Source: Candidatus Spyradenecus sp. (GTDB taxonomy: Bacteria > Verrucomicrobiota > Verrucomicrobiia > Opitutales > UBA953). From it: 64,000 bases of DNA. Each line of letters begins with the position of its first letter. The first letter of the stretch is position 1. Made by a program: the position numbers. The stretch covers positions 224,001 to 288,000 of the forward strand of contig JAZSKX010000018.1 of NCBI GenBank assembly GCA_045535075.1. The letters run 5' to 3'. This document shows positions 24,001-27,000 of this stretch, piece by piece.

Positions 24001-27000
24001 ATGGCTTTCGGAGCGCTTTCAACGAGTTCCTTAGCTTCTTTGAGGCCAAGACCCGTGATTGCACGAACTTCCTTAATAACGTTAATGGCACTCGCGCCTT
24101 TATCTTTGAGGATAACGTCGAACTCCGTCTTTTCTTCAACCGGAGCAGCAGCAGCGCCTGCAGCGCCCGCAACAGCAACCGGAGCAGCCGAAACGCCCCA
24201 GAGTTCTTCGAGTTCTTTAACGAGAGCGACCATATCCTTAACGGGTTGGGCGCTCAGCCATTCGATGACTTGTTCTTTTGTGATGTCTGACATGATATTT
24301 AGTTCCTTGAATGATTAGCGTTCGCGAAATAACGAACATTTAAGGGGTTATCGCCCCTAACCGATTTCTTTGGAGTTCCCGTCCTCCGCTTTTCGCATGA
24401 AGAGAAGCGGAGGACGAAAAGATTCTTCTTACTCGGACGCGCCGCCTTCTTTGTCGTTCTTGGCAACAAGAACACGGACGAACGAGCCTGCCGGCGTAGA
24501 AAGAAGCGAGAGGAAGAGCGCACGAGCTTCCGCAAGAGACGGGAGCTTGGAAAGTTCTTCAACCGCATCCTTATTCAAAAGCTCTCCTTCGACAACGCCA
24601 GCCTTGATTTCAAGACGTGCCTTGTCTTTAAAGAACTTGAAAAGCACTTTGGCAACTCCGCTCGGATTGTCTCCGCCGGTAACGATTGCCGTATGCCCGG
24701 ACAAATACTCGGCAAGATCCGGAAGCTGAGCTTCCTTAGCCGCAATATTCAAAATGCTGTTTTTGACAACGTGGTATTCCGCGTTAAACTCACGAAGCTG
24801 AGTGCGAATCGTAGCCGCATCAACAACGGTAACACGCGTAAAATCCGCCAAAATAAGATAGTTCGACTTCGCAAGGTGCTGTGCAACTTCGTCTACGAGA
24901 AATTTCTTTTCAGATCTCATGGATTCTCAGTCCTTTCTTAGGCGATGTAGGGTTTAACGTCAATTTTGACACCCGAGCTCATCGTGGAGCTGACCGTCAA
25001 AGACTTTATGAACTTCGCGCCCTTGAGCGCTTCCGGCTGAGCTTTGACGAGCGCTTGAATCGCTGCTTCCGCATTTTCAGCAAGTTGCTTGGAATCAAAC
25101 GAACGCTTTCCGATGACAATCGCAATATTCGCGGTTTTGTCCATCTTAAATTCAACACGACCGCCTTTAACAGCCTTAATCGTGGCCGGAATATCATCCG
25201 AAACCGTTCCCGACTTCGGATTCGGCATCAAACCGCGAGGTCCGAGAACACGCGCGACTTTGCGGACATCTTTCATTGCCGATGTCGTAGAAATCGCGAC
25301 ATCAAAGCCGGTCCAACCGGAATTAACTTTTTCGATAAGGTCGGCAAGTCCTGCAGCATCCGCGCCTGCATCAAGAGCTTCCTGCGCATTTTCCGTAAAG
25401 ACGATAACCGAGACTTTCTTTCCGCTTCCGTTCGGAAGGGAAACCGTCCCGCGAACCATCTGATCGGACTGCTTCGGATCAACGCCCAGACGAGCACTGA
25501 TTTCTACTGTTTCGTCAAACTTTGCCTTCGGCATTTTTGCGAGCATTTCAACAGCTTGTTCAACTGTGTAGAACGCCGCCAAATCGCCGACGGACTTCGT
25601 TGCCGTATAACGTTTGGATTCTTTTTTTTGCATTGATTTCGACTTTCTTGTCTCCTGCTTAATTGCAGTATTTAGAAAACTATCCGACGACTTCGATGCC
25701 CATAGAGCGCGCAGTCCCTTCAATCATTCGAGCTGCCTGATCCGCATCCACCGCATTCAAGTCTTTTTTCTTAATTTCAACGATTTCGAGAATCTGCTTG
25801 CGCGTAACTTTCCCGACCTTCGTTTTATTCGGAACTCCGGAGCCGCTTTCAATCTTAGCAGCTTTCTTCAAGAGAACCGCCGCCGGCGGTGTCTTAAGAA
25901 CGAACGTAAAAGATTTGTCCTGATAAACCGTGATAACGACAGGAAGGATCATCCCTGCCTGATCTTTTGTGCGAGCATTATACTCCTTACAGAAGGCCAT
26001 GATGTTCACGCCTTTTGCACCGAGCGCCGGACCTACGGGAGGAGCCGGATTCGCAGCTCCCGCCGGAAGCTGGAGTCTAATTTCACCTACTACTTTTTTT
26101 GCCATTTGTTGTGTATTTTTAAAGGTTGAATTCGAACGAACTAACTTTCAAGAACACGCTCCACCTGCCAGAACTCAAGCTCAACCGGCGTCAGACGCCC
26201 GAAAATCGATACGGACACCTGCATCTTTCCTCGCTCATTGTCAAGAGAATCAATCGTTCCCGTGAGATTCATAAAGGGACCTTCGAGAATCTTAACTTCT
26301 TCTCCCTCGTTGAACTGAACCTTCGGCACAACCTTTCCTTCCGCCGCCTTAATCTGCTCTTGAATTTGTGCAATTTCAGCAGGCTTAAGTTTGACCGGAT
26401 GTTCTCCGCCGATAAAATCAATCACCCCCTGAACGTTGCGGACAAAGAACCAAGGCTTGTTAATTAGGCGCCCTTCTTCGTCAAACAAACGCATCCGGAG
26501 GAAGATATAATTCGGGTAAAGCTTACGAACTCGTTGGGTTTTCTTTCCCTTACGAACTTCCTGGACATTTTCCGTCGGCATCAAGACTTCCTTGATATAG
26601 TCCTGCAATCCCTCAATCTCGATAAACTTATCAAGATACTTTTTCACCTTCTGCTCCATATTGGAGAGTGTCTGGATTGCATACCAATCAAAGCAAGCTC
26701 CCGCCTCTGTCTGTTCCATGGTGTCTGTTTTTTGAAAGTTATTTATGTTGGAAAAACGCCTGTGTAAAACTAGGCGCTTACAAGTTTAGTCAAAAACTGA
26801 ATCAGACTTCCGAGAGACAAGTCAAAGGCAAAGATGACACACGTCAGAAGCATAACGGCAACACAAACAACAATCGTATATTGCGCAAGCTCTTTCGGCT
26901 TCGGCCAAATAGCCTTCTTGAAAACTTCCGAACAAGTTTCATTAAAGAACCGTCGGCTTGTTCCGATAAGACTGAAAATTTTCGAAAACATTGTTTAAAG

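Follow-up and report, generated by a model that had tools for sequence, protein, structure and literature searches.

The closest described counterparts of the RNA considered here are the L10 leaders, in which the binding site of the L10(L12)4 complex comprises a kink-turn and a UAA element and is located before rplJ (PMC3616713, PMC4538822, PMC10931766). The kink-turn is stated to be 'always present' in these leaders, and both the kink-turn and the UAA loop are critical for binding (PMC3616713, PMC4538822). In addition, the UUAAW sequence may be followed by a second hairpin that has U-G or C-G as its opening pair and ends in a closing CG (supplement of PMC3616713). The described L10(L12)4 leaders repress, and they do so for both genes together (PMC4538822, PMC10931766), while the L1 leader of the same operon sits before different genes across phyla (PMC3616713). 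On the ribosome, L10 spans the region from the junction of the 23S helices H42-44 to the kink-turn Kt-42. This junction is of type C, with a U-turn formed by U1082-A1086 and with H43 and H44 locked together (PMC2952862, PMC1919483), and A1085 docks on the pair G1055-C1104 (PMC1919483). The level of L12, which amounts to 4-8 times that of L10, has been explained by codon use, by structure at the start site and by processing of the mRNA (PMC13001810, PMC5499594). For instance, cleavage between rplJ and rplL in the archaeon Methanolobus psychrophilus unmasks the ribosome binding site and raises L12 output (PMC5499594), and cleavage in this spacer is also reported for Streptomyces (PMC13001810).

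In the genome studied here, the minus strand of the 64-kb window, i.e. the whole stretch of DNA analysed, carries the gene run secE-nusG-rplK-rplA-rplJ-rplL-rpoB. This genome clusters with records that bear the label Opitutales or Opitutae, of the phylum Verrucomicrobiota. According to NCBIfam matches, rplJ (24429..24920, minus strand) encodes ribosomal protein L10 of 163 aa, the candidate ligand, and rplL (23919..24293, minus strand) encodes ribosomal protein L7/L12 of 124 aa. The start of rplJ lies just 17 nt past the rplA stop, too close for a canonical L10 leader to fit in between. The spacer between rplJ and rplL measures 135 nt and holds a strong hairpin, followed by a three-way junction. 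The GC-rich hairpin just after the rplJ stop (24376..24420, minus strand; -27.2 kcal/mol, z -6.5) has no U-tract 3' of it in the sequence and is possibly a processing or stability element; hairpins at this place are frequent in relatives too, with unrelated sequences.

The three-way junction, likewise on the minus strand, consists of a closing stem and two hairpins that are joined by a UUAAA linker. The 5' strand of its lower stem (24366..24374; helix 1, 77% paired) reads UCC, an AAA loop and GAA, of which GAA pairs with UUC at 24309-24311, and UCC is able to pair with GGA of the Shine-Dalgarno-like AAGGA (24304..24308), which lies in the sequence immediately past the lower helix. Six pairs below the junction, three nucleotides (24363..24365) face A24312 in a 3x1 internal loop. 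The 5' strand of the closing stem P1 (24357..24362), the analogue of H42, pairs with 24313-24318 in both the alignment and RNAalifold, and its top pair, G24357-C24318, is the analogue of G1055-C1104 and presumably the receptor of an A-minor contact. Comparative alignment places the P2 hairpin, the analogue of H43, at 24344..24356. The linker (24339..24343) corresponds to 23S positions 1082-1086 as well as to the UAA loop in L10 leaders, and P3, the analogue of H44, occupies 24319..24338, beginning here with U-G and then G-C. On the two sides other than the linker, the junction has zero spare bases. The 3' strands of P1 and of the lower helix (24309..24318) lie 16-25 nt upstream of the rplL start.

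Taken by itself, this sequence folds weakly (z -1.75 for 24309-24365 and z -1.06 for 24300-24375), hence the support for the junction is comparative. A covariance model matched this genome once, at this site (E 2.7e-20; next-best E 3.2). The first set of sequences comprised 30 rplL loci, namely that of the genome itself, 18 of its genus and 11 from other families; the junction is present upstream of rplL in all 30, one of which (G029) is devoid of the second hairpin, P3. In a MAFFT alignment of the 24 distinct sequences, 89% of the cells are paired and 14 of the 22 pairs show changes on both sides, a level of pairing and covariation that was reached by 0 of 500 shuffles, while slid registers gave 33-48%. 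RNAalifold predicted the same three helices without guidance. Among 34 more diverse sequences, 18 of 20 pairs are altered on both sides in an alignment that was fitted to the model and thus leans toward it. Kinship inflates such counts of two-sided changes; nonetheless, the changes are spread over many families. In the MAFFT alignment A6, P1 and P3 are supported (87%), whereas P2 (60%) and the columns of a kissing interaction between the two hairpin loops (36-40%) are unsupported because gaps shift the loops out of register; therefore, the kissing interaction is judged from loop pairing family by family and from a metagenome set. The structured RNA before rplL is confirmed, and the initial annotation was right in placing a three-way junction with compensatory changes between rplJ and rplL and in finding that no Rfam leader fits it, as no family of Rfam 15 matches.

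The same annotation had confined the element to Opitutales, which proved too narrow. In this order, the junction is present in all 53 genomes (the 30 loci of the first set, 16 new model matches and 7 loci fetched directly), one of them without the second hairpin, and all 11 named Opitutales records with upstream DNA match, two duplicates and one truncated record being left out. From the other orders of the class, whose name (Verrucomicrobiia), like those of the other groups of relatives, we infer, 50 genomes were retrieved (10 plus 40, the latter picked to cover families). Outside Opitutales, the models R1 and R2 perform poorly, R2 reaching E <=0.03 at just 6 of 40 loci; the class-wide count is therefore based on reading by eye combined with a scripted grammar whose rate of false positives is about 10%. 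The grammar passed 44 of the 50 genomes as compared to 40 of 500 shuffles. By eye, three of the passes are mis-parses (L076, L226, L244), while three failures (L077, L225, L233) do hold the junction with a weaker P3; variants with an A-U top pair (L216) and with a GAAAC linker (L226) are visible in the folds. On these combined grounds, the junction is present in 46 of the 50 genomes and was not found in the other four (L072, L075, L076, L244).

In other classes of the phylum, the grammar passed 5 of 44 genomes versus 39 of 440 shuffles and the models matched none; in other phyla, sampled outside Chlamydiota and Planctomycetota, it passed 5 of 62 versus 69 of 620 shuffles. Hence, the junction is class-wide and, among the groups searched, above chance only within the class. 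A model search of 150 genomes of the phylum, in which 33 candidates per genome were scored, matched 18, all of them Opitutales; blanks in this search are no evidence of absence, because seven Opitutales missed by it proved positive when fetched. With only P1 and the linker fixed, a pattern search of metagenomes returned at least 80 loci. L12 is encoded downstream, as judged by blastp, at 78 of the 80 matches listed, the remaining two being one that is too short and one chance match. In the 77 distinct true matches among those listed, both hairpins form, with means of 5.5 pairs out of 6 and 6.5 out of 7; the lower helix has its third pair in 68 of the 77 (C-G in 45, A-U in 19). Viral contigs yielded 0 matches to the Opitutales pattern. 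Two further matches were set aside as chance: a second R1 match in G143, flanked by a transporter gene and a convergent gene, with a closing stem of just 2 bp, and an antisense match in L215 (E 0.011). RNA runs for the locus L070 were consulted as contigs, from which ends, strand and level are not readable; three of four cover all 30 bins.

The conserved features were derived from 64 family representatives, for which 109 of 116 loci were parsed and seven unparsed or mis-parsed loci left out. Their linker has the consensus NNAAW with 5 nt and their top pair is G-C, both of which are imposed by the grammar. A fair test of this conservation is a sequence-blind search, which scored 61 of 69 class representatives: 22 chose a 5-nt linker, with AA at positions 3-4 in 22 of 22 and a G-C top pair in 21 of 22, and the other 39 results are mostly shifted registers of the same junction. 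Among outsiders, a 5-nt linker was chosen in 1 of 46 scoring. Likewise, the two linker As are invariant in the MAFFT alignments. The initial annotation had given the linker as an invariant YAAAUG and had regarded a U-G and a G-C pair as fixed; the invariant linker and the fixed U-G apply to no more than a part of Opitutales. The first pair of P3 is U-G in 37 of the 64 representatives, the others having C-G (7), U-A (6), C-A (6), A-A (5) or another combination such as U-U or A-G (3), and the second pair is G-C in 28 of 64. The first pair of P2 is G-C in 49 of 64, and the sequences of P2 and P3 are otherwise not conserved.

A counterpart of the bulged C in the non-canonical stem of L10 leaders was looked for below the junction, where a 5'-sided bulge or 3x1 loop with varying letters follows after 5-6 pairs; a 3x1 loop after six pairs and then at least two further pairs, found in 33 of 64 representatives, is the commonest of the loop shapes tried. 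The lower helix pairs by Watson-Crick interactions with covariation. A kink-turn signature in the register of the rRNA, namely a bulge of 3 nt with tandem G-A following it, was found in 0 of the 64. The C of the top pair lies 16-40 nt before the rplL start in 60 of 64 representatives; in the remaining four, its distance from the called start is 60-97 nt. In most members, the lower stem ends beside the Shine-Dalgarno sequence, and many members are without a clear one.

Outside Opitutales, hairpin lengths are near-constant (P2 with 17-18 nt in 32 of 37 families, P3 with 20 nt in 31 of 37), and the loops of P2 and P3 are complementary to each other: 34 of 37 families can form 3 or more pairs between them, and 24 of 37 can form 4 or more. 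Shuffling of the partners gave expectations of 24.1 and 11.4 families, respectively, and 0 of 2000 shuffles reached either observed count. Two types of loops occur, GCCY with RGGU and NGCN with NGCN. As three changes suffice to explain the GCCY/RGGU type on a quick L10 tree, with a single origin being possible, independent compensations at the kissing core are few. In the metagenome matches listed, the three core kissing positions are paired in 52-54 of 55. Among Opitutales, where the hairpins are short and variable, the kissing loop was found in 1 of 27 (chance 1.2); P2 has 3-5 bp, and the kiss is lost while the linker and the G-C pair are kept.

The model of the known L10 leader, RF00557, did not match the junction RNA and found 0 leaders in 61 genomes of the order, but it is insensitive: of 14 control genomes it matched 4, and the leader of E. 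coli escaped it. Stronger evidence on the missing leader comes from the spacer between rplA and rplJ: all 62 of the Opitutales measured have 62 nt or less there, and 48 of the 49 other members of the class measured have 60 nt or less; the single long spacer (114 nt, L072) belongs to a genome without the junction RNA. Median lengths are 15.5 nt in Opitutales, 17 nt in other orders, 11 nt in other classes and 228 nt in other phyla. Spacers this short leave no space in the class for the known L10 leader. The literature surveyed, mostly abstracts, describes neither a leader located before rplL nor any from this phylum; by a search for these terms, the main text of Eckert and Weinberg 2020 (PMC7247131) contains no L10, L12 or rplJ, and four Verrucomicrobia accessions gave one match in the supplement of Fu 2013, namely in its L1 alignment. 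Large catalogues of motifs, whether in subscription journals or in supplements, could already contain this RNA; in Rfam 15 and the literature searched, this well-supported structured RNA family is absent.

Regarding its function, the junction may represent a relocated L10(L12)n autoregulatory site that is devoid of a kink-turn and limits L12 translation, the reading that we favour, although its chances appear evenly balanced; tertiary fold, ligand and sign of control are here as we infer them. According to this reading, the L10(L12)n site would have moved from before rplJ to before rplL, thus allowing control of the multi-copy protein alone. The two As of the linker would dock onto the closing stem from its minor-groove side, through an A-minor contact on the G-C pair, the hairpins would lie side by side and be locked by the kiss outside Opitutales, and the 5'-sided internal loop would bend the stem in place of the kink-turn. 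Whenever the stalk complex is in excess over free rRNA, the L10 domain of the complex would bind the junction, and bound L10 would stiffen the stem beside the Shine-Dalgarno region, thereby hindering the loading of 30S on rplL. The synthesis of L10 itself would keep pace with that of L1 owing to the close spacing of their genes. In favour of this reading are the constant place before rplL, the short spacer between rplA and rplJ, conserved bases that coincide with those of the L10 site and with the rRNA triple G1055-C1104/A1085, the second hairpin of the known leaders and the changing position of the L1 leader across phyla.

In silico, the junction forms unaided, with a median probability of 0.77 (0.19 in this genome). 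Fixing the junction leaves the region from -20 to -1 equally open as in the free fold (0.61 vs 0.60 in 60 representatives), opening of -20..+3 costs a median of 4.8 kcal/mol, and neither a Shine-Dalgarno switch nor an alternative fold was seen in the 60 representatives. Hence, any repression would be exerted by stiffening and steric block rather than by a switch. Such control would also be dispensable, because other classes of the phylum, with short spacers in 44 of 44, have no room for the known leader and did not show the junction. Speaking against autoregulation by L10(L12)n are the missing kink-turn, the generic type of the junction, the lack of a switch and the blindness of R1 to H42-44. 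To our knowledge, L12 is the sole ribosomal protein that is required in several copies; if the reading is true, a leader for rplL alone that is kept throughout a class would constitute a direct handle on the L12:L10 ratio, and an L10 site would be able to shed its supposedly essential kink-turn and be rebuilt with a kissing loop.

The unaided folding is equally what would be expected of a compact, protein-independent fold that, with the hairpin upstream, labels or shields the processed message of rplL or exposes its start site and so gives the several-fold excess of L12, the likeness to rRNA reflecting descent or a common fold, an explanation that we consider somewhat improbable. A-minor docking and a kissing loop would form a self-sufficient fold, and an alternative fold was not seen. 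Furthermore, cleavage between rplJ and rplL raises L12 in the methanogen (PMC5499594) and is reported for Streptomyces (PMC13001810), this genome has RNase E/G and a match to RNase Y just below the cut-off, and a strong hairpin stands upstream (24376..24420). However, a stabiliser has no need to copy an L10 site, initiation is usually reduced by structure close to the start, and the rplL start regions of E. coli and B. subtilis are described as weakly structured (PMC13001810). RNase J was not found in this genome with TIGR00649, so that a block against 5'-3' decay is unlikely here, and Opitutales gave up the kiss yet kept the linker and the G-C pair.

If L10 is the ligand, the junction RNA might act as a stoichiometry sensor through which L10 sets the level of L12, with loaded and unloaded L10 acting differently (activation by L12-free L10, or repression by the complete stalk alone) on a kink-turn-free, kissing-locked copy of H43/H44, possibly together with L11; we regard this as unlikely. 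Positive or stoichiometry-sensing control, in which L12-free L10 binds the junction and promotes translation or stability of rplL until it is saturated, is distinctly unlikely. The position between the two genes would be a logical site for sensing the L10:L12 ratio, a switch that hides the Shine-Dalgarno sequence was not found in folding, and the evidence for binding is shared with repression. On the other hand, the described L10(L12)4 leaders repress (PMC4538822, PMC10931766), the stem lies inside the region that 30S must open at the median cost given above, and L10 without L12 is poorly soluble.

Very unlikely, in our estimation, is L11 as the ligand, alone or together with L10, such that locked, H43/H44-like hairpins recruit L11 and offset the lost kink-turn. 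Hairpins of constant length (17-18 nt and 20 nt), together with the loop lock, both outside Opitutales, would mimic the side-by-side arrangement of H43 and H44, rplK belongs to the same gene run, and L11 is said, in work attributed to Iben and Draper from 2008, to strengthen the binding of L10 on rRNA. L11 reads the U1060/A1088 region of H43/H44, but this region is not kept in the junction RNA, the hairpin sequences of which vary freely; the bulged A of H44 is kept in only three of the elements seen, P2 of Opitutales has just 3-5 bp, and G029 does without P3. Finally, chance hairpins, a terminator or a promoter in the rplJ-rplL spacer are practically negligible explanations. In their favour, the single sequence is no more stable than many shuffles and a simple terminator scan flags P2, but comparative evidence rejects them, with covariation in both alignments, a constant place upstream of rplL over more than 50 families, hairpins and loop pairing that re-emerged in loci retrieved by a pattern leaving both unspecified, terminator-like and promoter-like matches no commoner than in shuffles, and no U-run on the coding strand after the junction or the upstream hairpin.

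As far as we know from the initial annotation, no rRNA is assembled in this genome; for comparison, 23S H42-44 was read from 11 genomes of the phylum. The proposal that the junction mimics the GTPase centre of 23S rRNA holds for the order of the helices, for the U-turn linker of 5 nt with its two As and for the closing G-C pair, which are alike in the 11 rRNAs and the junction RNA, and does not hold for G1056/A1103, the equivalents of which are lacking except in G029, for Kt-42 and for matching by R1. Against the 11 rRNA loci, R1 did not match H42-44, its best match lying elsewhere in one 23S (E 0.016), while the grammar matched H42-44 in 11 of 11, having been written to admit the rRNA features. 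At the base of H44, the pair that follows the linker is C-G in eight of the rRNAs, A-U in one and G-C, the E. coli type, in two; a Y-R pair at this place is common to the junction RNA and most of the 23S read; in G135, the rRNA pair 1087-1102 is A-U while its junction RNA keeps U-G. The hairpin sequences are unrelated to H43/H44, although three elements (L062, L065, L146) retain UUAAA-Y-A-G of the rRNA with the bulged A. The contact between the hairpins, which is mediated by base triples in 23S, would in the junction RNA be a Watson-Crick kiss outside Opitutales. With 0-5-0 linkers, an AA linker and loop-loop complementarity outside Opitutales, the junction RNA has the features of type C, and it would presumably also form the 3D contacts of this type. 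The A-site junction H90-92 of 23S and other type C junctions share the 5-nt linker, the two As of which dock through A-minor contacts, whereas H90-92 differs in strand order, its linker returning to the closing helix, and is unlinked to rplJL. Since the same kind of linker is present there, the core alone names no ligand, and because this linker is a general type C motif, its conservation could serve folding alone.

Even closer to the junction RNA than 23S H42-44 is the top of the L10(L12)4 leaders (RF00557; PMC3616713, PMC4538822). Both have a closing stem, a hairpin, UUAAW with two unpaired As and often a second hairpin, as well as a stem asymmetry 5-6 pairs below the junction, and the E. 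coli L10 leader has G-C and then UUAAU at the matching place. In contrast to the leaders, the junction RNA lies before rplL rather than rplJ, has no kink-turn (0/64), joins its second hairpin to the closing stem without an additional nucleotide, and is set apart by the kissing loop between its hairpins outside Opitutales. The signal of Methanolobus psychrophilus sets L12 output from the same spacer, but it is archaeal and based on cleavage, and the part of the report consulted does not mention an rRNA-like junction (PMC5499594). Taken together, the junction RNA stands outside the L10 leader family because kink-turn and position fail, and is built like the upper half of such a leader.

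In two members of family f46 with genomes of 0.9 Mb (loci L075 and L076), the three-way-junction RNA is absent from the rplJ-rplL spacer, which is long (267 and 314 nt, respectively), possibly as a consequence of loss in reduced genomes; by contrast, two Opitutales genomes of 0.8-0.9 Mb (G021 and G025) retain the junction. It is missing as well from the f44 locus L072 (genome G111), whose rplA-rplJ spacer of 114 nt is the sole long one among the class members measured, and no unusual fold emerged there upon folding against shuffled sequence (z -0.3).

A further conserved motif, distinct from the junction, occupies the rplJ-rplL spacer of eight loci (L083, L086, L095, L097, L106, L109, L110 and L183, the last of which is labelled Kiritimatiellae). 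In it, an invariant GUAAAA precedes a hairpin that is long and variable; next come a second hairpin, which covaries (8 pairs, with changes on both sides in 6), and GGUU. The motif lies before an A-rich start region. This motif may constitute another site of the UAA type, i.e., the loop with two unpaired As known from L10 leaders. Apart from its carriers, the remaining lineages outside the class feature short spacers. Beyond the phylum, rplA and rplJ abut, as in the class, in Polyangiaceae (L140), Bdellovibrionales (L145) and Minicystis (L156), and the structured rplJ-rplL spacers of these loci (160-226 nt), in which the junction was not found, are candidates for holding other rplL leaders.

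Additional elements accompany the ribosomal protein genes in the window, all on the minus strand. In the rplL-rpoB spacer (23770-23918; z -5.6), a pair of strong hairpins precedes U-rich sequence and may act on rpoB, which lies next, as an attenuator or a site of processing. Between rplK and rplA (25634-25679), two small hairpins, CUGC/GCAG and GAC/GUC, around GGAG and GAAA, could represent an L1 site before rplA; the fold is weak (z only -1.0), the pair is conserved in the 6 closest genus loci, the first hairpin also in a seventh, and neither occurs in 7 other families, where the spacer is short. Near tuf, an ORF of 248 aa (28552-29298) matched no NCBIfam family above cut-off, and another of 160 aa (30482-30964), with a lysine-rich tail, yielded a weak YlcI/YnfO match below cut-off.

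With respect to 23S rRNA, the 1087-1102 pair at the base of H44 is C-G in 8 of 11 sequences from the phylum, G-C in 2 and A-U in genome G135 (locus L124). The rplJ (L10) leader of E. coli (L135:1938-2205) is not matched by the Rfam L10 leader family, RF00557, and aligns with RF02858, 'Actinobacillus sRNA 08' (E 1e-8), a family that is probably an rplJ leader.
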